From Nostoc punctiforme PCC 73102 (lineage in GTDB: Bacteria; Cyanobacteriota; Cyanobacteriia; Cyanobacteriales; Nostocaceae): DNA of 32,000 bases. The stretch spans positions 4,470,001 through 4,502,000 of the forward strand of contig NC_010628.1 in assembly GCF_000020025.1 (NCBI RefSeq), read 5' to 3'. Of the stretch, positions 1,841-29,114 are shown piece after piece. The first letter of the stretch is position 1. Each line of letters starts with the position of its first letter. The translations under genes were made by a program, and so were the position numbers. The notes beneath the pieces are model-generated. The model searched no databases, was not told where the DNA came from, and worked only from the letters and a program-made list of their open reading frames with translations.

Positions 1841-2077
1841 ATCTCTTTCATCCACCTCAGAACTCCGTTCATCCACCTCGGAACTCCGTTCATCCACCTC
1901 GGAACTCCGTTAATCCATATCAGAACTCCGTTAATCCATATCAGAACTCCGTTCATCCACCTCGGAACTCCGTTAATCCACCTCGGAACTCCGTTAATCC
2001 ATATCAGAACTCCGTTCATCCACCTCAGAACTCCGTTCATCCATATCAGAACTCCGTTCAACTCCATCATCCACTTA
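1841..2077. repeat. 21-bp tandem repeat array, 10 full units plus degenerate edges
   Basis: Units of TCCACCTCAGAACTCCGTTCA run from 1851 to 2060 with an exact 21-bp period. Three variable sites (CCT/TAT, A/G, C/A) are mixed in mosaic fashion. The degenerate edges are 1841-1850 and 2061-2077. Confidence 0.95.
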
Positions 2078-2200
2078 AGAGAGATAATCTCAGTAGGCGT
2101 TATCTTAAAAAATAGTGCGTGGGCGTAATTACATATCCTGCCCAGTTTACCGAATTCAGCACAAACTCACGACAAGTAGTAGCTTGCAAGGTTCCTTTTG

Positions 2201-2788
2201 ATGAATAGCACAAGATTTCTTTTTTTACCTAAACAAATTACTGGCTGGCGAAGGTGGTTGTCCAAATGCCTATTGTTGCTTGCAAGTCTTTTCATTATAA
2301 GTACGCAACCTGCTTATGCTGGTCTAAATAATGATTTATATGATGGCAACATCTTTGTCGTTTATGCTGGCAATGGTTCATTGGTTCCTCCCAGACAGAC
2401 ACTCGCACAAACTTTAGCGGAACATAAACCGATATTTCTGGCTTTTTATTTAGATGACAGCAGCGATTCTAAAAGATATGCCATTTCTATCTCACGGGTA
2501 CAGGAATTCTACGGTCGGGTAGCAGAGATTATGCCGATTAATGTAGATACTATCCCGTCTAAAGAAACCTACGACCCTACAGAACCAGGATATTACTATT
2601 CTGGGGCTGTTCCTCAAGTCGTGGTGTTTAATAAAGCAGGTGAGGTAGTTTTGAATAAAAAAGGTCAAGTACCTTTCGAAGAAATAGACGATCAATTTCG
2701 CAAAATCTTTGATTTATTACCACGTACCGAAACCGCACAGCTAAAGCGACGAGCTTTTAATGAGTTCAGTAGTGAGTTAGCTAAATAA
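2201..2788 (+). CDS. Secreted/lumenal thioredoxin-fold-like protein without CxxC; tentatively the cyanobacterial family annotated as thylakoid membrane photosystem I accumulation factor
   Basis: ATG at 2201 (a TTG lies at 2198). The N-terminus has a signal/anchor sequence (LLLLASLFIISTQPAYA). The mature part is conserved-looking (NDLYDGNIFVVYAGNGSLVPP). A terminator hairpin follows. The family name is from memory and unverified. Confidence 0.6.
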   Translation: MNSTRFLFLPKQITGWRRWLSKCLLLLASLFIISTQPAYAGLNNDLYDGNIFVVYAGNGSLVPPRQTLAQTLAEHKPIFLAFYLDDSSDSKRYAISISRVQEFYGRVAEIMPINVDTIPSKETYDPTEPGYYYSGAVPQVVVFNKAGEVVLNKKGQVPFEEIDDQFRKIFDLLPRTETAQLKRRAFNEFSSELAK

Positions 2789-2794
2789 GTTTTG

Positions 2795-2825
2795 GGGTAG
2801 ACCAAATTGGTCTGCCCTAGTTTTT
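2795..2825 (+). terminator. Rho-independent terminator candidate
   Basis: GGGTAGACC (2795-2803) pairs with GGTCTGCCC (2809-2817) as a 9-bp stem with one G-U pair. The loop is AAATT. CTAG and TTTTT (2821-2825) follow, 7 nt after the stop codon. Confidence 0.6.
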
Positions 2826-2931
2826 CGTGCTGTCTGTTACTACATTTATGCTGATGCCAAAGCATAATATTGAAATATCTGTGTTAACCATTTATAAAAT
2901 TAATCTCTAGTCCCGTATTGAGTGTATTCTG

Positions 2932-3540
2932 ATGTCAAAGGTTTACACCACCCAGGAGCTAATTCAAGTTTTGGCAGCCGAACGCCAAGCTTGCCTCAAC
3001 GGAAAACGCCTAAAGTTAGAGATAACGGTCTCTGGCAATCCTGTAATTGACCAGTTTATCAGGACTGATGGGCTGCAACAATTCACAGCTTACCAAGATT
3101 TCAAAGCTGCAATTCACGATTATCAAAAAGAAAATCAAGTTTCAGGTATTATCTGGCGGGAGGTGACAGTTAAAGGTAAAAACTTAAACTATCCCGAAGT
3201 AAATACTGATTTAATAGCTCTTTCTAGTGACTTAGAGATATTAAAAGCTGCTAAAAATTCCATTGTAGAATTTTGGTTTGAAGTCTCTATGGGGATGGAT
3301 TTATATTTGAGTTTCAATAATAGTAAACAATACCAACAAATTCTCACATCTGATGTAGAAAGAATTGTTCAGAGAACAGAGTGGGCAAGTTTGTGCAAGT
3401 GGGAAAATTCAAGTTTTTTGGAAATGATTTTGCAGCTAGGATGGGGTAAACCAGAAGAAGCTTATTATAAACGAGGAAGACCGGGATCGGGTAGTGAATA
3501 TATTCATGCAGTCAATCCTGGGAATCGCCCCATTGGATAA
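2932..3540 (+). CDS. Hypothetical protein, 202 aa, no recognised domain
   Basis: Clean ATG-initiated ORF with protein-like composition. Its TAA stop overlaps the start of a heptamer array. I recognise no motif. Confidence 0.6.
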   Translation: MSKVYTTQELIQVLAAERQACLNGKRLKLEITVSGNPVIDQFIRTDGLQQFTAYQDFKAAIHDYQKENQVSGIIWREVTVKGKNLNYPEVNTDLIALSSDLEILKAAKNSIVEFWFEVSMGMDLYLSFNNSKQYQQILTSDVERIVQRTEWASLCKWENSSFLEMILQLGWGKPEEAYYKRGRPGSGSEYIHAVNPGNRPIG

Positions 3541-3621
3541 TTCGTAATTCGTAATTCGTAATGGGCTTCTCTGCGAGACGCTAAAAGCGAACGCCCCGCT
3601 AAACTAACGTAATTCGTAATT
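3539..3621. repeat. AATTCGT heptamer array interrupted by a ~43-bp insert
   Basis: AATTCGT x3 plus AAT lies at 3539-3562. The insert GGGCTTCTCTGCGAGACGCTAAAAGCGAACGCCCCGCTAAACT lies at 3563-3605. The array resumes as (A)ACGT AATTCGT AATT at 3606-3621. Confidence 0.85.
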
Positions 3622-3785: not shown

Positions 3786-6611
3786 TCAAGATGAATTACG
3801 AATTATATTGTCGATCGCTGTGGCTAATTCAGATGGATCTACGGGTTTAGGTAGGTGTTTTTGGAATCCTGCTGCCATTGCTTGGTTGTAGTTGATTTCT
3901 CCAGCATAAGCTGTCAGTGCGATCGCCGGAATTTGCCCACCTTGCTCTGGCGGTAATTTTCTCACCTCACGCAGTAGCATATAGCCATCCATCAAGGGCA
4001 TTCCAATATCGCTTAACAGAATATCTGGCTTTGATTGCATTAATATTTCCAGTGCTTCAGCTGCTGATTCAACTGCTGTTACAGTCGCACCATATTGTTC
4101 TAGGGCAAAGCTAAAAAACTCTCGCACATCAGCTTGATCGTCTACAAGCAGGATTTGCACCCCAGCCAGTAATGTATCGTCAGTACTTAGTTCTAGTTGA
4201 GAAGCCTCATCGCTGCTGACTCGCAACTCAGAATTTTTCAGCAAAGGTAGTCTGACTGTAAAAGTAGCGCCTTGCCCTTCTCCTAGACTCTCTGCCTGAA
4301 CTGTACCACCATGAAGTTCTACTAAATGACGCACAATTGCCAGCCCTAATCCGAGTCCCCCAAATACTCTGGTTGTCTTAGCATCTGCTTGCCGGAAGTA
4401 ATCAAAGACGTAGGGCAAAAATTCTGGGATGATTCCTTTACCTGTATCAATCACCTGAATTTGAGCATCTAAGCCAACTTGCTCTAGACGCACTTCTACT
4501 CGTCCTTCTGTGGGTGTGAATTTAACGGCATTGGAGAGGAGATTCCACATTACTTGTTGCAAGCGATCGCTATCGCCGAGGACTTTGCCGATATCATTAC
4601 TTAAAACCGTTTGAATTTGAATCGACTTGGCTTCTGCTGCTAAACGCACCGTTTCTAATGCACCTGCGATCGCTATTTTCAAATCCACTGCATAGAGATT
4701 TAATCTGACTTTACCTTGTAAAATCCGCGAAACATCGAGTAAATCTCCAATTAATTGAGTTTGTAACTTGGCATTCCGCTCGATTGTTTCCAATGCCCGA
4801 ATTTTAGTAGCTTCGTCGAAGTTGCGGGTTCTGAGTAACTTTGCCCACCCTAAAATCGGATTCAAGGGAGTTCGGAGTTCATGAGAAAGGACAGCGAGGA
4901 ATTCATCCTTAATGCGGTTGGCTGTCTCAGCTTGGGCCCTGGCGGTCTTTTCAGCTTCGTAAAGTTGAGCGCGAGCGATCGCTTGGGCACACTGCTGCCC
5001 CAGCGTTAACATAAATCCCCGGTCTTCTTCGTGAAATATTTGTTCATTGATAAAGCTTAATCCCAGTGCCCCAATTACTTTACCTTCTGCTATCAAGGGA
5101 ATGGAAGCCCAAGAATTATTCCCTGTAAGAGCCACAACCTCTGCTAAATTCGGATATCTAGCAATCATCGCTGCTAAATTTTCCAGAAAAATTGGCTCAC
5201 TAGTTCTGACTGTTTCTGCTATTTGGTTAGGTGCTGTAACGGGAAAATTTGACCAAGTATCTATGAGTGCTTGCGAATAGCCAATTGCTTGCACAACTTT
5301 TAGGCTAGTATCTCCCTCGGTAAGTAAGACAACGGAACCACCAGTAGCTTCCAAGGCAGCAATACCTTGGTTCACCACTACATCAGCTACCTGTTGGGAA
5401 GTGAGGGCTTCTGAGAGGGCGGCGGTTATTCTTTGTAAAAGTATGGTGCGATTGACAGACCTTTCAGCGCCCTGTTTTGCCTGTTGAGTTTCTTGGTAGA
5501 GTCTGGCATTGTCGATGGCTATCGCCGCCCGACGAGCAATATCTTCTGCTAAGGCTAAGTCTGTTTGTTTGTAGTGCCTACTTGACTCGGCTGTGAAAAA
5601 AGAGATTGCTCCAAATAATTGCCCACGGGAACGAACTGGAATCACCATTAGAGAACAAATACCTAGACTTTGCAGTAATTGCAGATGTTCGTCGTCTTCA
5701 GCCATCTGCAAAAGATGAGAGTCAGATAATTCGGGATAAAAGACAGATATACCTAGCTGTAGCTGCCGCACAAGCTGTTTGGCTCTGGTTTTGGGTCGAT
5801 AACGCCGTCGGATTTCGTCTAAAGTATTTAGTTTTGTGGGATCGGCAATTGCGATCGCAATTTGTTTACTTGACCAATCTTCCTGGAAAACATCTACAAT
5901 ACACCAGTCAGCTAAGGTAGGAACTGCGAGATTAGCCACACTTTCTAAGGCAATTTCATAATCTAATGAGGCAGCGAGTAAGGTGCTGGCCTCGACTAAA
6001 AACTGTTGTGTTGTTTCAACTCGTTTGCGATCGCTAATATCTTCAATAATGCCTAACGCATACTTTGGAAGTCCGTTGGTATCCCAAACTGCTGATGAAG
6101 TTAGGTTTACCCAAACTATAGAACCATCTTTGCAGATGTAGCGCTTCTCTAAGGAATAACCATTAATTTCTTTTGCTAAAACTCGCCGAGCATTTTCCAA
6201 GTCAACTGCTAAGTCGTCAGGATGGGTAATTTCTTCAAAGGTTATTTGCATTAACTCTTCAGGGCTGTACCCAGTAATTTCGGATAGGGCAGGATTAACC
6301 TGAATAAATTTTCCATCCAACGCTACCAGAGTAATACCCACAGCTGCCTGGTTGAACATTGCCCGGAATCTTTCTTCGCTTTCTCGCAAAGCCACTTCTG
6401 TTTGCTTGGCTGCTGTCACATCTGCCAAAATAATTCCAATTCCTACCGTTTCGCCCATTGAGTTGTTGACTGGGTAATAGTTGCCCAGCCAGTAGCCGTA
6501 ACGTCTGGATTGTTCCCTTGTCTCACCACTAATTTCTACATTCAGCAGTGGTTCTCCAGTATCCAAGACGCGCTGTAACTGTTGCTCAAGTTCAGCCGCC
6601 ATTGCTGGCAA
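3786..6611 (-). CDS. Hybrid sensor histidine kinase, C-terminal fragment (partial PAS, PAS, GAF, GAF, HisKA, HATPase_c, REC)
   Basis: 941-aa ORF. The H-box is EFLAVLSHELRTPLNPILGW. The G-boxes are DTGKGI and GGLGLGLAIV. The C-terminal receiver reads LLVDDQ...LLSDIGMP...LPKP. The ORF begins (TTG 6611 or ATG 6602) in the middle of a PAS domain. Confidence 0.85.
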   Translation of the reverse strand: MPAMAAELEQQLQRVLDTGEPLLNVEISGETREQSRRYGYWLGNYYPVNNSMGETVGIGIILADVTAAKQTEVALRESEERFRAMFNQAAVGITLVALDGKFIQVNPALSEITGYSPEELMQITFEEITHPDDLAVDLENARRVLAKEINGYSLEKRYICKDGSIVWVNLTSSAVWDTNGLPKYALGIIEDISDRKRVETTQQFLVEASTLLAASLDYEIALESVANLAVPTLADWCIVDVFQEDWSSKQIAIAIADPTKLNTLDEIRRRYRPKTRAKQLVRQLQLGISVFYPELSDSHLLQMAEDDEHLQLLQSLGICSLMVIPVRSRGQLFGAISFFTAESSRHYKQTDLALAEDIARRAAIAIDNARLYQETQQAKQGAERSVNRTILLQRITAALSEALTSQQVADVVVNQGIAALEATGGSVVLLTEGDTSLKVVQAIGYSQALIDTWSNFPVTAPNQIAETVRTSEPIFLENLAAMIARYPNLAEVVALTGNNSWASIPLIAEGKVIGALGLSFINEQIFHEEDRGFMLTLGQQCAQAIARAQLYEAEKTARAQAETANRIKDEFLAVLSHELRTPLNPILGWAKLLRTRNFDEATKIRALETIERNAKLQTQLIGDLLDVSRILQGKVRLNLYAVDLKIAIAGALETVRLAAEAKSIQIQTVLSNDIGKVLGDSDRLQQVMWNLLSNAVKFTPTEGRVEVRLEQVGLDAQIQVIDTGKGIIPEFLPYVFDYFRQADAKTTRVFGGLGLGLAIVRHLVELHGGTVQAESLGEGQGATFTVRLPLLKNSELRVSSDEASQLELSTDDTLLAGVQILLVDDQADVREFFSFALEQYGATVTAVESAAEALEILMQSKPDILLSDIGMPLMDGYMLLREVRKLPPEQGGQIPAIALTAYAGEINYNQAMAAGFQKHLPKPVDPSELATAIDNIIRNSS

Positions 6612-8851
6612 TACTTCCCCAAATTTGCGTCAAATTTGCGTCCTAGATGTTCTTCTATAGTCAAACCATTAATGTCAGCGAAAACTTGATTAATTCGGAG
6701 ATATCGCAGTTCCCGATCTAAAAAGCATAGGGCAACAGGAGCGGCTTCTAACAGTGCATCTAGAAGAGATAGAGATTCGGCGTAATGAACTAAAGCGTGT
6801 TGGATATCTCGATAAAGTCGGGCATTTTCTACTGCTAAGGCTGCACGATGGGTAATCTCTGTTGCTAAAGTAAGGTCAGTGCGATCGTAGCGACGGTTTG
6901 ATTCGGCAGTTACAAAGCTGATGCAACCAATAACTCGCCCTTGTGCAATTAGCGGCACAATCATTACAGATTTCATTCCCAATTGCCGAACAATTTCTAA
7001 ATGTTCTTGATTCTGAGTGCTTGCCACTAATAGCGAGTCAGATATATCTGAAATTAATTCGCTTTGCCCAGTTTGCAGCACCCTAGTAATTGCACTTGCA
7101 CCCTTGTACTCTGTCGTATACTCCTGAAGTTTACGCGCCAACTCCGCCTTTGATGGGTCTGCATGGGCAATGGGTAGGCGGCGAATGGAACCATCTTCAT
7201 TTAAAATATCAACGCTACACCAATCAGCTAGTTGAGGAACTGAGATTTTGGCAATTTGTTCTAAGGTTTCTTCATAATCTAGCGAAGTAGAGAGTACACT
7301 ACTAACTTGCGCGATATAACGGAGTCTTTCTTCAGCCTGCTTGCGCTCTGTAATATCGAGAACAAAGAAAACTCCTCGATCTACAGTCCCTTCAAAATGG
7401 CTACCGCCTGCCAAAATCGGCAAGCGTGAACCGTCTTTACGGATATATTCTTTTTGGTATGGCGTGCAAAAGGGGCTGTCTTGAAATTCAGTTAGTGCTT
7501 CCTTATCAAGTGGCACGTACTCTGTAGGAGTTAGGTCTTGCCAGCGAAGTGTTCCGGCAAGTAATTCTGCACGGGTATAACCCACTATATTGAGCAAGGC
7601 ATCATTCGCTTCTGTAATCCTACCGTCTCTATTCCAGAAGCCAATACCAATCATATTTGAATCAACCACGCTGCGAAACTTCGCTTCGCTTTCGCGTAAT
7701 GCTTGCTCTGTTTGTTTGAGTTGAGTAATATCAATTGAACTAATGCTCACTCCCAATAACTGCCCATCCGGTAAACACACTGGATAGTAGCTAACAAGAC
7801 CATAACGATACACCCCAGGCGGATAGGTTTCACCACTCACTTCCTGATTGAGTAAGGGCTGCCCAGTTTGCATCGCTTCCTCAAAAACAGGCTCAATTTG
7901 CGCTGCCCATTCCGGTAGTACTTCCCGAAAGGTGCGACCAATATGTTGAGTTTGGGGTATACCGTTAATAGCCGCTAGCGCTTCATTAGCGTAAACATAG
8001 CGAAGTTCAGTATCAAGAAAAGCCAACGCCACTGGTGAACTGGTAAGCCAAGCATTAAGCAACGCCAGAGATTCGTCTTTTTGTTGAACGGCTTGTTGAA
8101 GTTCCTGATACAACTTGGCTTTTTCTAGTTCTGCTTGCTTGCGCTCAGTAATATTCACAGCCGCACAAGTAATACCATGAACACTATTGTCTGTATCTTT
8201 CAGTGGTTCAACCAGCAAATCATAGTAACGATCTTCTCCGCAAGTTGTCAGATAAACCTCTTCACGGGTTGAAACACCAGTCTCTATTACCTTCAGCTTA
8301 ATTGCCTTCAATTGCTCTGCTACTGAAGCTGGAAATAATTCATCATCAGACTTACCTAACATTTCCTCAGCAGTATCTAAACCTTGGGGATTATGAATCC
8401 ACTGATATCGCAAATTTCGATCTTGTTGAAAGACCACAATATCTGAACTGCTTAATGCTAATCGAAATCTCTCTTCACTAACTCTTAACTGTTGGAGATT
8501 TGTATCAGCCCGTCTTTTAGCAGTCTTTAATGCCTCACATAAAATACTAAAGAGCAATCCTTGTAATGCAAACAACCCAATTCGCACAGAATTAGATAGG
8601 TCAAAACTCAGCTCATAAGCTGGCGGGAGAAAGAAGTAATTGCTCAGTAATGCAGACAAGGAAGTTGCTAATAGCCCTGATTTCAAACCACCATACCAAG
8701 CACTCACCATTACAGCGCCAAAAAAGAGCAAGAAAGGAGTTCCACTCATGCTTAACCAGGGGTCTAGCATCAACATTAACACTAATGCGACTGTGACAAT
8801 TAATACAACAATTCCATAGCGCAGTAACTGGGAATAATGAATATGAGGCAT
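6542..8851 (-). CDS. Membrane sensor, N-terminal fragment of the same kinase (DUF4118-like TM region, 3 PAS, GAF, partial PAS); no transmitter domain
   Basis: ATG at 8851 (the ORF track starts at TTG 8869). The TM segments and the AWYGG motif are typical of DUF4118. PAS/PAC repeats are separated by RESE(E/A)(R/K)FR linkers. The last ~30 aa (DANLGKYCQQWRLNLSNS...) are out-of-frame junk after the duplication. Confidence 0.8.
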   Translation of the reverse strand: MPHIHYSQLLRYGIVVLIVTVALVLMLMLDPWLSMSGTPFLLFFGAVMVSAWYGGLKSGLLATSLSALLSNYFFLPPAYELSFDLSNSVRIGLFALQGLLFSILCEALKTAKRRADTNLQQLRVSEERFRLALSSSDIVVFQQDRNLRYQWIHNPQGLDTAEEMLGKSDDELFPASVAEQLKAIKLKVIETGVSTREEVYLTTCGEDRYYDLLVEPLKDTDNSVHGITCAAVNITERKQAELEKAKLYQELQQAVQQKDESLALLNAWLTSSPVALAFLDTELRYVYANEALAAINGIPQTQHIGRTFREVLPEWAAQIEPVFEEAMQTGQPLLNQEVSGETYPPGVYRYGLVSYYPVCLPDGQLLGVSISSIDITQLKQTEQALRESEAKFRSVVDSNMIGIGFWNRDGRITEANDALLNIVGYTRAELLAGTLRWQDLTPTEYVPLDKEALTEFQDSPFCTPYQKEYIRKDGSRLPILAGGSHFEGTVDRGVFFVLDITERKQAEERLRYIAQVSSVLSTSLDYEETLEQIAKISVPQLADWCSVDILNEDGSIRRLPIAHADPSKAELARKLQEYTTEYKGASAITRVLQTGQSELISDISDSLLVASTQNQEHLEIVRQLGMKSVMIVPLIAQGRVIGCISFVTAESNRRYDRTDLTLATEITHRAALAVENARLYRDIQHALVHYAESLSLLDALLEAAPVALCFLDRELRYLRINQVFADINGLTIEEHLGRKFDANLGKYCQQWRLNLSNSYSASWILENHC
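6621..6642. repeat. Perfect 11-bp tandem duplication causing a frameshift
   Basis: AAATTTGCGTC occurs at 6621-6631 and again at 6632-6642. On the gene strand this is GACGCAAATTT x2. Confidence 0.95.
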
Positions 8852-8954
8852 GAAAATGTTTAAGAACAACCAATACTTATTGCAGAGGCTCTACATACCC
8901 TAAGCTAGTTTTCAAGTTTTAGTAATTTATCTCTAGATAGATTTTTTTCAGTTT

Positions 8955-9156: not shown

Positions 9157-11319
9157 TCAGAGGATATAATGCAAAATTTTACTTGTCGTCAGAAGTGCTT
9201 CTACTGTCTGGTGGCTTAGAGGCTTAGAAAATAGATAGCCTTGACCAAATTCGCATCCCAGTTCCTGTAACCATTGAAGTTGCTGCGGTGTTTCGATACC
9301 TTCTGCAACAACGGCTAATCCGAGTTGATTGCTTAAAGCAATAATAGTACTAACTACCTGATAATTACGGTTTCCTTGTTGCATCTGGCTTACAAAAGAG
9401 CGATCAATTTTTAAATTATCAGCAGGTAAACGATGCAGATAATTGAGCGACGAATAACCAGTACCAAAGTCATCAATGCTAATCTTAATTTTTCTAGACT
9501 TTAATTGGCTTAATAAATCAATTGTCTGACTAATATTCTCAATTAGCATACTTTCAGTAATTTCTAGGGTTATACAGTCGCCTTCTAAACCTATTTGGGC
9601 TAGTATTTGATCGATGTATTCAATTAAGTTTCCTTGGCGAATGTCTTGAACAGAAAGGTTAATATTAACCTTGATTGGGAAGTGAGTAGCAAACTTTACT
9701 TTCCAGTCTGCTAGGTGTTGACAAGCTTTGTAGAGCATCCAGCGATCAATTTGCACAATTAGCCCCGTTTCTTCCGCGATAGAGACAAATTCTTTCGGTA
9801 AGACTAACCCACGAGTTGGGTGTTGCCAGCGCAGCAATGCTTCAAATCCAATCAGTCGTCCTGCTTTGCTTTGCCCATCTCCAAGTATGTCAACAATTGG
9901 CTGGTAATATATAACAAACTCTTCTCGTTCGATAGCTTTGCGAATATCGGTTTCTATAGTTAGTCGATTTACGGCTTGAGTGTGCATTTTGACATCAAAA
10001 ATTTTATACGAGTTTCTCCTTTGAGCTTTGGCTTTATACATGGCAATATCGGCATCTCGGAGTAAATCGGAGGCTTGAGAATATTCGTTTGTTCCTAAAA
10101 CAATCCCGATGCTTGTACTGATAACTACTTCGGCATCATTAAGCATTAATGGTGTTTGAAAATCTATGAGCATACGCTCAGTAATTTGAATAGCTTTTTC
10201 AATATCAGAAATATCTTCCAGCAAAATGACGAATTCGTCACCACCAATTCGAGCAACTAAATCAACTTCCCGCAGATGAGTTTTTAGTTTGTGAGCAATA
10301 TTTTTTAACAGTTGATCTCCAGCAAGGTGTCCGAGACTGTCATTGATCACTTTAAATCGGTCTAGGTCTAGAAACAAGACGGCATAACGATAAGTTTCTA
10401 ATCGTTTAGCTCGGTTAATGGCTAGTTCTAGCCGCTCTATCAAAAGTGTGCGATTTGGTAAATCCGTCAATGGATCGTGTAAAGAGTTGTGGATAATTAA
10501 CTCTTGTGCTTGTTTGCGTTCGCGCAGCGCAGCTTGCTGTTCGCGAAGTGCAACTTGCCGTTCGTTCACATCTAATAAAACACCATACCAGACAATATCC
10601 CCATTTTCTCGACATTCTGGACGAGCACTTGCCTGTACCCATTTGAGTTTGCCAGAAGGTGTAACTAATCGCCACTCGTAAGAAAATGGTTTTAAAGTTT
10701 GAGCGCTCTCGTTGGCCGCTGCATAACATCCTGGATAATCATCGGGATGAATTTGTGCAAAGCAAAGAGAGGCATTTTCTAAAATTTGATCTGGCGTTAA
10801 CTCTAAAAGATCCAGACAGCCAAAACTGATGTAATCAAAGGCAATAGAACCATCAGAATACTGAACAAAGCTGTAAATCATTCCGGGTATATTAGACGCT
10901 AATGTTTGTAACAGCTTTTGAGCTTGTTTGCGCTCCGCTCTCACCTGTGCATCCCGAAGTTCTCTACGCACTGCCTCTGGCAATCGATTTAAGTTGTCCT
11001 TCATGACATAATCATTCGCACCTGCTTTCATCATTTCCACAGCAAGTACTTCGCCAATTGTGCCGGAAACCAAAATAAAAGGAATATCTTTTTGGCTTTG
11101 CTTTGCTATTTCCAAAGCCGCAGAAGCATTGAATCCTGGCAGCCGGTAATCTGAAATCATCACATCCCAAGTCTGACTATTGAGTGCTATTTGTAGTTCC
11201 TTGTCTGTTTGCACACGCTGCCAGTTTGGATTGAAACCACCGCGACACAATTCATGAATAACTAACATAGCATCCTCCTCTGAATCTTCAACAATCAGGA
11301 TGTTCAACGGTTCATTCAT
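9157..11319 (-). CDS. Response regulator with PAS, GGDEF and EAL domains (c-di-GMP cyclase/phosphodiesterase)
   Basis: ATG at 11319 lies 10 nt after AAGGAG (11330-11335, minus strand). The REC domain reads ILIVEDSEED...DVMISDYRLPG. A PAS domain follows. The GGDEF motif is intact (RIGGDEFVILL). The EAL domain shows EALLRW, DDFGTGYSSL, KIDRSF and EGIETPQQ. Confidence 0.92.
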   Translation of the reverse strand: MNEPLNILIVEDSEEDAMLVIHELCRGGFNPNWQRVQTDKELQIALNSQTWDVMISDYRLPGFNASAALEIAKQSQKDIPFILVSGTIGEVLAVEMMKAGANDYVMKDNLNRLPEAVRRELRDAQVRAERKQAQKLLQTLASNIPGMIYSFVQYSDGSIAFDYISFGCLDLLELTPDQILENASLCFAQIHPDDYPGCYAAANESAQTLKPFSYEWRLVTPSGKLKWVQASARPECRENGDIVWYGVLLDVNERQVALREQQAALRERKQAQELIIHNSLHDPLTDLPNRTLLIERLELAINRAKRLETYRYAVLFLDLDRFKVINDSLGHLAGDQLLKNIAHKLKTHLREVDLVARIGGDEFVILLEDISDIEKAIQITERMLIDFQTPLMLNDAEVVISTSIGIVLGTNEYSQASDLLRDADIAMYKAKAQRRNSYKIFDVKMHTQAVNRLTIETDIRKAIEREEFVIYYQPIVDILGDGQSKAGRLIGFEALLRWQHPTRGLVLPKEFVSIAEETGLIVQIDRWMLYKACQHLADWKVKFATHFPIKVNINLSVQDIRQGNLIEYIDQILAQIGLEGDCITLEITESMLIENISQTIDLLSQLKSRKIKISIDDFGTGYSSLNYLHRLPADNLKIDRSFVSQMQQGNRNYQVVSTIIALSNQLGLAVVAEGIETPQQLQWLQELGCEFGQGYLFSKPLSHQTVEALLTTSKILHYIL

Positions 11320-11596
11320 ACCCCACAATCTCCTTGGTAAGTATTGAGTAAACTTGTATAATTAGGTTTGTGAGCCAAGTGATTTTGGATTTTAAATTTT
11401 AGATTTATTTTATGGCTCAAGGCGGTGGCTCTGAATAAAAAATTTTAGGATTTTAGCTTTGTTCTTTTGTTTAAATTTATTTACTTTAAAAAATTTTTAT
11501 GTTTGGCATCCTGAGTAATTTAATCCAAAATCAGAAATTTAAAATTTACTCAGACCAGATTTTTCTTTGTATCTAACATTTATAAGCAGTTTAACC

Positions 11597-18237: not shown

Positions 18238-18332
18238 GATTTGTCATTAGTCATTTGTCCTTAGTCCTTAGTTATTAGTTATTTCTTATTCTCCCATTCC
18301 CAATTCCCAATTCCCCATTCCCTATTCCCCAT
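18238..18332. repeat. Composite STRR block (GTCATTN-type units, ATTTCTTATTCTCCC, CCCAATT/CCCCATT units)
   Basis: Starts TTTGTCATTAGTCATTTGTCCTTAGTCCTTAGTTATTAGTT. ATTTCTTATTCTCCC (18281-18295) follows. It ends ATTCCCAATTCCCAATTCCCCATTCCCTATTCCCCATT. The block abuts the bioF stop. Confidence 0.85.
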
Positions 18333-19517
18333 TCAAATAACATCCTTCAGCGCTGCCACCAATTTTTCAATATGTGCTACTTTATGAGTCGCCATCACAG
18401 ATATTCTGATTCGACTTGTGGGCACTGTAGGAGGACGAATTGCTGGGGCAAAAATGCCAGCATCTCTTAGCTGTTTTCCAGCTTTGAGGGCATCTGTAGC
18501 ATTAGGCAATTGAAAGCATAATATGGGTGATTCAGAAGGCAGCAATTTTAAGTTAGGCAACTGTTGTAGCAAAGTTTTCAAGTAATGTATATTCCTCCAC
18601 AATTGGGCAAGATGTTGCGGTTCTTGTTGCACTATCTTGATTGCTGCTAAGGCTGCTGCTGTATCAGCAGGTGAAAGCCCAGTGGTATAAATCCAACTGG
18701 GTGCGCGGTTCCGCAAAAAGTCAATTAAGGCGCTACTTCCTGCCACATAACCGCCTAAACTACCCAAAGCTTTACTCAAAGTCCCAATTTGAATTAATTG
18801 CTTTCCTGTACACCCGAAATATTCGACGCACCCAGCGCCAGTTTTTCCTAGTACCCCAGTGGCATGAGCTTCATCGACTAGCAGCATACAGCTAAATTCA
18901 TCAGCCAGATCGAAGAGTGCAGGCAAGGGACATAAATCGCCGTCCATGCTGAAGACAGTATCAGTAAGAATCAAACAGCGTCGGTAATTTTGTCGTTGTT
19001 GACTCAACTGAGTTTTGAGTACTGCCACATCACAGTGCGGATATTCCACAACTGCTGCACCGCTAAGAATGGCTCCATTTTTCAGACTTGAATGATTGTA
19101 CTGGTCGGATAATATTAAATCCCGCTTGCCCACAAGGGCGGTAATTGCACCCAAATTAGCTAGATACCCTGAACTAAATACCAAGGCATCTTCTGTTTGT
19201 TTGGTAGATGCGATCGCCTTTTCTAACTCCCTATGCAATTCTCTATGCCCACTGAGTAATCTAGAACCAGTACTACCAGTGCCAAATTCTGCGATCGCAG
19301 CAGTTGCGGCTGCCATCAACCGCTTATCCCCAGCCAATCCCAAATAGTCATTGCTGGCAAAATTAATTACCTCTTGCCCAGCTAAAACCACCGTTGCACC
19401 CGGACGACCGTTGATAGGTTGTACCGAACGATACCAGTCTGCCCGATGAATTGTTGCTAAGGACTGTTCTAGCCAGGCATAAGGATCACGTCGCTTCGCT
19501 CCGAATTCAAAATTCAA
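18333..19517 (-). CDS. bioF: 8-amino-7-oxononanoate synthase
   Basis: 394 aa. The N-terminus is [10 protein letters not shown]...WYR, followed by [10 protein letters not shown]. The PLP-lysine region reads [16 protein letters not shown] 19517 is the only canonical start upstream of the conserved N-terminus. Confidence 0.9.
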
Positions 19518-19639: not shown

Positions 19640-19687
19640 GGACAGGGGGAGAATAAGAAATGACCAATGACCAATGACAAATGACAA
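19640..19687. repeat. Composite STRR block, inverted relative to 18238-18332
   Basis: GGGAGAATAAGAAAT (19647-19661) is the exact reverse complement of 18281-18295. It is followed by TGACCAA TGACCAA TGACAAA TGACAAT, the reverse complement of TTGGTCA (STRR2-type) units. The block abuts the ruvA stop. Confidence 0.85.
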
Positions 19688-28013: not shown

Positions 28014-29102
28014 ATGGGCAATATTTTTGGTCATTTATTTCGCATTAGTACTTTTGGCGAGTCTCACGGCGGCGGTGTGGGGGTTGTGATTGATGGTTGT
28101 CCTCCACAACTAGAAATTTCGGCAGAAGAAATTCAGGTAGAACTAGATAGAAGGCGGCCGGGACAAAGTAAAATTACGACTCCCCGCAAAGAAGCTGATA
28201 CCTGCGAGATTATCTCAGGAGTATTTGAAGGCAAAACGCTGGGAACCCCTATAACGATTTTGGTACGTAATCAAGATACTCGTCCCCAAGATTATGACGA
28301 GATGGCACAGAAGTATCGGCCTTCTCACGCGGATGCAACCTATGATGCAAAATATGGCATTCGCAATTGGCAAGGTGGGGGTAGGTCGTCAGCACGTGAG
28401 ACAATCGGGAGAGTAGCAGCAGGTGCGATCGCTAAAAAAATTCTCCGTCAAGTTGCCAATGTCGAAATTATTGCTTACGTTAAGCGGATTAAAGACTTGG
28501 AAGGTGTAGTCGATCCTAATACTGTAACCTTAGAACAAGTAGAAAGCAATATCGTTCGCTGTCCCGATGCTGAATGTGGCGATCGCATGATTGAATTGAT
28601 TGAGCAAATAGGTAGACAAGGCGATTCTATCGGCGGTGTCGTAGAATGTGTGGCGCGAAATGTACCGAAAGGTTTGGGCGAACCAGTATTTGATAAATTA
28701 GAAGCTGATATCGCTAAGGGTGTCATGTCTCTGCCTGCTAGCAAAGGCTTTGAAATTGGTTCCGGTTTTGCGGGAACGCTACTAACGGGAATTGAGCATA
28801 ACGACGAATTTTATATCGATCAAAATGATGAAATCCGTACAGTAACAAACCGTTCTGGCGGTATTCAAGGCGGGATTTCTAACGGCGAAAATATCATTTT
28901 GCGAGTTGCATTTAAGCCGACAGCAACAATTAGAAAAGAACAGAAGACTGTAACTCGTGAGGGCGAAGAAACACTATTAGCAGCAAAAGGACGACACGAT
29001 CCTTGTGTATTACCGCGTGCAGTGCCAATGGTTGAGGCAATGGTGGCGTTGGTACTATGTGACCATTTGTTACGGCATCATGGTCAGTGCAAAGTCTTGT
29101 AG
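28014..29102 (+). CDS. aroC: Chorismate synthase
   Basis: 362 aa. The N-terminus reads [41 protein letters not shown] and GRHDPCV are also present. Confidence 0.95.
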
Positions 29103-29114
29103 TCTCTTGTAGTC
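29095..29114. repeat. Perfect 10-bp tandem duplication spanning the aroC stop codon
   Basis: TCTTGTAGTC occurs at 29095-29104 and again at 29105-29114. The first copy contains the TAG stop (29100-29102). Confidence 0.9.

Follow-up and report, generated by a model that had tools for sequence, protein, structure and literature searches.

Substrain-specific frameshifts occur in signaling and motility genes of model cyanobacteria, and pseudogenes of this strain-specific kind have a recognizable layout, in which a small insertion or deletion (indel) in one culture lineage leaves two adjacent open reading frames (ORFs) that are annotated separately, while relatives carry a single ORF. The locus described here follows that layout in Nostoc punctiforme PCC 73102 (ATCC 29133), the main genetic model for plant–cyanobacterium symbiosis, hormogonium motility, and cell differentiation. 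In a 32,000-nucleotide (nt) window of its genome (NC_010628.1, positions 4,470,001 to 4,502,000; all coordinates below are window positions), a perfect 11-bp tandem duplication divides a minus-strand gene for a large hybrid histidine kinase into an upstream sensor half (ORF A) and a downstream kinase half (ORF B). An earlier note on this DNA had pointed out the duplication and offered very recent pseudogenization, a reversible slipped-strand switch, or an assembly artifact as explanations. We conclude that a recent duplication specific to PCC 73102, in a kinase gene conserved across Nostoc, has very probably left the strain with a fixed loss-of-function allele.

On the plus strand, AAATTTGCGTC is read at 6621–6631 and again at 6632–6642, just as the note had claimed, and both our own scan and Tandem Repeats Finder (2.1 copies, 100% matches) extend the perfect period-11 match to 23 nt. 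In its gene-strand context the repeat reads CTAG GACGCAAATTT GACGCAAATTT GGGGAAG, with the edges of the duplicated unit ambiguous by 1 nt (a single-G microhomology), and the unit includes an 8-bp palindrome, CAAATTTG. A perfect period-11 duplication is expected by chance only ∼0.008 times per 32 kb. More broadly, the window holds six perfect duplications with periods of 10–30, vs. a mean of 0.03 in 30 mononucleotide shuffles, although most of the six lie within known repeat arrays.

The extra 11 nt shift the reading frame, and as a result the native start gives a 769-aa fragment. Residues 1–740 of ORF A are authentic and end in ...TIEEHLGRKF, after which 29 out-of-frame residues lead to the stop at 6542, in agreement with the “about 30” junk residues noted earlier; its ATG start agrees with the N-termini of the orthologues (MPHIHYSQ...). 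ORF B starts inside GEVLPAMAAELEQQ, shares 61 nt with the end of ORF A, and can alternatively be read from TTG 6611, giving 941 aa. Across the joint its frame reads QI*RKFGEVLPAMAAELEQQ... (QI*RKFGEVLP), such that the TGA formed where the two copies meet closes the frame just upstream of RKFGEVLP. Removing one copy in silico restores a single ORF of 1690 aa (from TTG 8869) or 1684 aa (from ATG 8851) without any internal stop, bearing out the proposal that one hybrid histidine kinase of ∼1684 aa had been split; the arithmetic given for it (5066 − 11 = 5055 nt) matches the length of the repaired ORF. The repaired ORF is colinear with its orthologues and shares 98.65% nt identity with the gene on an 8.33-Mb JGI contig (L002). 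In exact look-ups, RefSeq enters the two halves as two ordinary proteins of N. punctiforme, and the 90% cluster to which they belong also includes proteins of 1685 aa (Nostoc sp. LEGE 12450) and 1691 aa (JGI). All of the factual statements made earlier about the duplication and the ORFs proved correct.

Judged from its Pfam matches, the repaired protein is predicted to be a membrane-anchored multi-sensor hybrid histidine kinase. It comprises, in order, DUF4118 (residues 18–122), a PAS/GAF array made up of four PAS_4-type PAS domains, a classical PAS (829–941), and three GAF domains, followed by HisKA (PF00512; residues 1317–1381, 56.8 bits vs. a cut-off of 26.9), HATPase_c (PF02518; 1428–1539, 99.3 bits vs. 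26.4), and a receiver (PF00072; 1569–1682, 83.3 bits vs. 30.2). The SHELRTP H-box and the acidic-residue motifs of the receiver (LLVDD and LLSDIGMP) are visible in the sequence. Residues 746 and 747 flank the junction, 44 residues (∼40%) into a PAS domain of 113 residues, so the split does lie within a PAS domain as the earlier note had it, and the internal paralogous PAS segment quoted there is present in ORF A. Going by the general PAS layout, the N-terminal piece would keep only the first two strands and first helices of the fold, and the C-terminal piece the remaining helix and three strands. When the halves were scanned separately, ORF A contained DUF4118, three PAS, one GAF, and the first ∼44 residues of the broken PAS with no output module, and ORF B contained the rest of that PAS followed by PAS, GAF, GAF, HisKA, HATPase_c, and REC with no anchor. 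These scans agree with the earlier description of a sensor half without a transmitter and a kinase half without an anchor that begins in mid-PAS.

The two-copy allele is a real feature of the strain. An exact match to the 769-aa product, with its junk tail, occurs in the index of 53 blocks of the assembly collection, and a protein with this frameshifted tail can derive only from a two-copy allele. The two-copy junction is also present in all 10 of the contigs that we fetched, each assembled independently from a different sequencing run and 100% identical to the window over 5.7–8.1 kb; in these comparisons each assembly stands for the consensus of its data set. Repeated recovery of this junction and of the truncated protein in independent run assemblies rules out an assembly or sequencing artifact in the reference genome, an explanation to which we attach a negligible probability and which the earlier note had left standing. 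A perfect 11-bp duplication is also not a typical platform error, and the Logan assemblies are, we assume, not reference-guided. In an exact look-up among 15 billion proteins, which would miss partial proteins from short contigs, the repaired 1684-aa protein was absent. One further Logan contig (SRR35789028, matching window positions 2031–3572) is only 99.5% identical to the window in a gene neighboring the kinase, compared with 100% in the other runs, and must stem from another, very close strain.

The earlier note had proposed aligning the orthologous loci of related Nostocales genomes, rightly placing the source in that order, and this check gave a uniform answer, the one to be expected of a recent lesion. 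Full-length orthologues were obtained from exact look-ups plus a genome scan (a 300-aa protein query returned only proteins of up to ∼523 aa), yielding 82 relatives: 80 species representatives (GTDB, one genome per species; 78 labeled Nostoc and two metagenome-assembled genomes labeled Chroococcales), L002, which was reached via a neighboring 202-aa protein, and a metagenome contig (L001; ENA ERZ25039568 contig_26796). In 82 of 82 the junction aligns without gaps, a single copy of the 11-mer is present, and the frame is open through the site. For 79 of the 80 species loci and for L002, the open frame covers no fewer than 365 codons upstream and 936 codons downstream (typically ∼755 and ∼943); in the remaining species locus the downstream open frame is 447 codons. 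L002, at 98.6% nt identity to the window, encodes an intact 1691-aa gene with one 11-mer copy. L001 (∼96% identity to the window) likewise has one copy, although its kinase orthologue is cut into three ORFs by other 1-bp indels and its frames are much shorter. Since no relative is split at the junction, an ancestral two-gene arrangement is ruled out. The duplication is derived and found only in PCC 73102.

The breaks in L001 are probably not biological, as the contig looks error-prone. Independent pseudogenization as an explanation of its indels was set aside because many other genes on the contig are fragmented too, including many of the neighboring genes when compared with L002.

Several lines of evidence point to a recent duplication. 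The repaired ORF contains no further stop or frameshift. When the differences between PCC 73102 and L002 were polarized with eight outgroup orthologues, the PCC 73102 branch carried 15 nonsynonymous and 29 synonymous changes (dN/dS ∼0.16, indicating purifying selection) and the L002 branch 6 and 18 (dN/dS ∼0.10), and the two branches did not differ (Fisher p = 0.58). Because a longer period of neutral drift would have produced more nonsynonymous changes, the lesion appears to be young, and a Poisson bound limits any neutral phase to less than ∼16% of the PCC 73102 terminal branch (total branch divergence 0.87%). Single-copy relatives, the lack of any other lesion, and the signal of purifying selection thus all support the very recent pseudogenization that the earlier note had listed among its explanations. 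The features on which this account draws are collected in Table 1.

Table 1. Coordinates of the duplication, the two reading frames, and associated features within the 32,000-nt window.
Feature	Position	Strand	Details
11-bp tandem duplication	6620..6642	−	GACGCAAATTT at 6642–6632, GACGCAAATTT at 6631–6621, then G at 6620
ORF A	6542..8851	−	769 aa; RefSeq WP_052304630.1; alternative TTG start at 8869
ORF A out-of-frame tail	6545..6631	−	29 junk codons, DANLGKYCQQWRLNLSNSYSASWILENHC; stop at 6542–6544
ORF B	3786..6602	−	938 aa from ATG 6602; RefSeq WP_234710944.1
TGA in ORF B frame	6630..6632	−	Spans the joint of the two copies; closes the frame just upstream of RKFGEVLP
Interrupted PAS domain	6414..6763	−	Residues 703–815 of the 1690-aa repaired protein (Pfam)
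DUF4118 membrane module	8504..8818	−	N-terminus of ORF A (Pfam)
Transmitter and receiver region (HisKA, HATPase_c, REC)	3813..4910	−	Pfam; separated from the membrane sensor half
A_AAT_TTG heptamer	6620..6626	−	In ORF A frame; X_XXY_YYZ form; made by the second copy

We propose that the allele arose by a single de novo 11-bp tandem duplication in the PCC 73102/ATCC 29133 lineage, the likely cause being replication slippage or template switching with the 1-nt (G) microhomology. The microhomology and the palindrome are consistent with a simple duplication of this type. A second example lies in the same window at 29095–29114, where a perfect 10-bp tandem duplication (TCTTGTAGTC twice) overlaps the stop of the chorismate synthase gene aroC (28014–29102, plus strand). 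This duplication is common to five relatives, with point differences, and is single-copy in two others; with the stop codon already provided by the first copy it does no harm, and, though older, it survives because it is located after that stop. Beside it, in the spacer between aroC and the DUF3288 gene, there is a copy-number difference of ∼28 nt, with relatives carrying an extra AAAGACGCGATTAATCGCTGAATTAGG that the window does without. Small tandem duplications are common in this clade, and the 11-bp case is notable only for having hit coding sequence. A different origin with the same consequence would be an 11-bp target-site duplication made by an insertion sequence (IS) that was later excised, leaving both copies behind. 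Some IS4-family elements make target duplications of 10–13 bp, and a DDE transposase is present in the genome neighborhood of a close relative; set against this, no remnant of an element lies between the copies, clean excision that keeps both target copies is unusual in bacteria, and the comparable small tandem duplications nearby show no link to mobile elements. We therefore consider an IS footprint very improbable.

If translated from the native start, the present allele would yield a 769-aa membrane-anchored sensor fragment (DUF4118, PAS, PAS, PAS, GAF, part of a PAS, and 29 junk residues) with no kinase output, and the kinase/receiver half could be made only via an internal start at ATG 6602 or TTG 6611, as an anchorless protein beginning in mid-PAS. 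With the sensor and kinase halves on separate ORFs, sensing and output would be uncoupled. The gene is thus most likely a recent loss-of-function allele, i.e., a pseudogene, fixed in the strain. A number of points weigh against this conclusion. Loss of function is deduced from the reading frames, and in ORF B translation could begin at a usable ATG, preceded at 11 nt by a purine-rich GGGGAAG, to give a truncated and possibly active soluble kinase with complete PAS, GAF, GAF, HisKA, HATPase_c, and REC domains. RefSeq, as described above, treats both halves as ordinary proteins. Cultures may contain one-copy revertants at low frequency, which would be compatible with consensus assemblies, and the sequencing runs may all be of one culture lineage, in which case an origin in the 1973 isolate and an origin in culture are both compatible with the data.

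Some of these points also speak for functional gene fission, in which the cell would make and use, as separate proteins, the membrane sensor fragment and, from ATG 6602, a soluble kinase-receiver, leaving the pathway rewired and not dead. Every catalytic module of ORF B scores above its Pfam cut-off, the in-frame ATG has the GGGGAAG sequence at 11 nt, and both halves are annotated as proteins. Against fission, the break is within the fold of a PAS domain and away from any domain boundary, none of the 82 relatives is split at the junction, and ATG 6602 is the conserved internal methionine of a ...LPAMAAE... motif. Translation of ORF B would have to start within ORF A, 61 nt ahead of the ORF A stop, an arrangement that does not favor coupled reinitiation, and a crude scan of the gene strand between 6400 and 7400, restricted to sigma-70-type sites, found no promoter-like site. 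The split is also too young for selection to have shaped it, and we judge functional fission to be unlikely.

Two further alternatives would preserve expression of the full-length kinase. In a reversible ON/OFF switch, slipped-strand changes between one and two copies of the 11-mer would control expression; perfect tandem duplications lose one copy spontaneously at a relatively high frequency, and here one copy restores the frame exactly. Yet there are only 2.1 copies of a long unit in place of a multi-copy hypermutable tract, and at the consensus level two copies are found in 10 of 10 assemblies of the strain and one copy in 82 of 82 relatives, with no intermediate or three-copy state. The repaired protein, as noted, is absent among 15 billion proteins. 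JGI metagenome contigs, scanned with a pattern allowing a gap of 0–22 nt and with the exact two-copy junction, gave no match either; as the one-copy allele is missing from them too, that collection seems to lack this lineage. No positive evidence for a switch emerged, and the constant copy number within the strain contradicts it at the consensus level; we regard it as very unlikely. The remaining alternative is −1 ribosomal frameshifting at A_AAU_UUG, a canonical X_XXY_YYZ heptamer in the correct frame, from which a −1 slip would enter the ORF B frame downstream of its TGA and give the complete kinase with four additional residues (HLGRKF-DANL-GEVLP). These would fall within the PAS fold, however, and UUG slips poorly when in the A site. 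No stimulatory structure was found in the 96 nt from the heptamer (z = −0.56; 54 of 200 shuffles gave an equal or better fold), and no Shine-Dalgarno-like (GGAGG-like) stimulator at the usual distance upstream of it. As the heptamer occurs in no relative, it cannot have evolved as a signal and arose by accident with the duplication; rescue of the gene by frameshifting is extremely unlikely. There is likewise little chance that the two-copy allele is leaky (through −1 slippage with the DANL insert) or reversible (through frequent copy loss) in a way that the cell exploits as a conditionally expressed kinase. A recent loss-of-function allele accordingly remains the preferred reading of the locus.

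For users of the strain, the main implication is that the gene for a large membrane sensor kinase is broken in the model N. punctiforme but open through the site in 82 relatives, a few of which have frames shortened elsewhere. WP_052304630.1 and WP_234710944.1 should be read as the halves of one disrupted gene, which surveys of two-component systems miscount, and the lesion could set the model strain apart from wild Nostoc in some phenotype. We found no published description of this 11-bp lesion in the literature, and a 2017 paper on PacBio resequencing does not discuss variants.

Some variation among the orthologues was seen away from the junction. In the PAS-to-GAF linker of the ORF B portion (window 6029/6030), in-frame indels add 0, 7, or 14 residues (DIS[ER QAALRER]KRVE); the shortest of these forms is that of the window, and the L002 gene is 21 nt longer here. 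Steps of whole heptads are what would be expected if the helical register of a signaling linker must be kept. A 266-residue block of two PAS domains (ORF A residues 234–499 in ATG numbering; window ∼7355–8152) is present in some orthologues and absent from others, with stop-to-stop frames of ∼1690–1708 codons with the block, ∼1421–1442 codons without it, and ∼1551–1568 codons in a third, intermediate class. The same ITERKQAE linker motif flanks the block on both sides, which suggests gain or loss by recombination between repeated linkers.

The adjoining upstream gene (9157–11328, minus strand) encodes a REC-PAS-GGDEF-EAL protein and is conserved beside the kinase gene in L002; its product is a plausible signaling partner of the kinase. 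The coding sequence of this upstream gene includes an in-frame 8-bp tandem repeat (9213–9228; SKPLS), probably due to chance. Elsewhere in the window, an intergenic array at 1847–2060 consists of about ten 21-bp units (TTCATCCACCTCAGAACTCCG, 90% matches), variants of which occur in another order in L002. Heptamer tandem arrays at 234–271, 3538–3562, 18239–18334, and 19659–19685 (ATTCGTA, TAATTCG, ATTAGTC, TCCCAAT, and AATGACC) resemble the short tandemly repeated repetitive sequences of heterocyst-forming cyanobacteria, and the array at 234–271 has one copy more than its counterpart in L002.

Compared with known systems, the repaired protein resembles multi-sensor hybrid histidine kinases in having every module above its Pfam cut-off. 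It departs from them in that sensor and transmitter, carried on one polypeptide in such kinases, are separate reading frames in PCC 73102, the frame being broken at 6631/6632. The locus shares with phase-variable contingency loci a repeat whose copy number sets the reading frame, such that losing one unit restores the gene; unlike those loci, it has two 11-bp copies that show no variation, and the repeat is not conserved in the gene. With programmed −1 frameshift sites of the dnaX and IS type it shares an X_XXY_YYZ heptamer in the upstream frame that leads to the downstream frame, but there is no stimulatory hairpin or Shine-Dalgarno-like element and the site is not conserved. The lesion is an ordinary inactivating mutation of the textbook kind, of use mainly for annotation and strain history, and touches no open question. 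Its match is to the strain-specific frameshift pseudogenes with which we began, differing from them in that the frame was lost to a perfect 11-bp tandem duplication and not to a homopolymer slip or an IS insertion.

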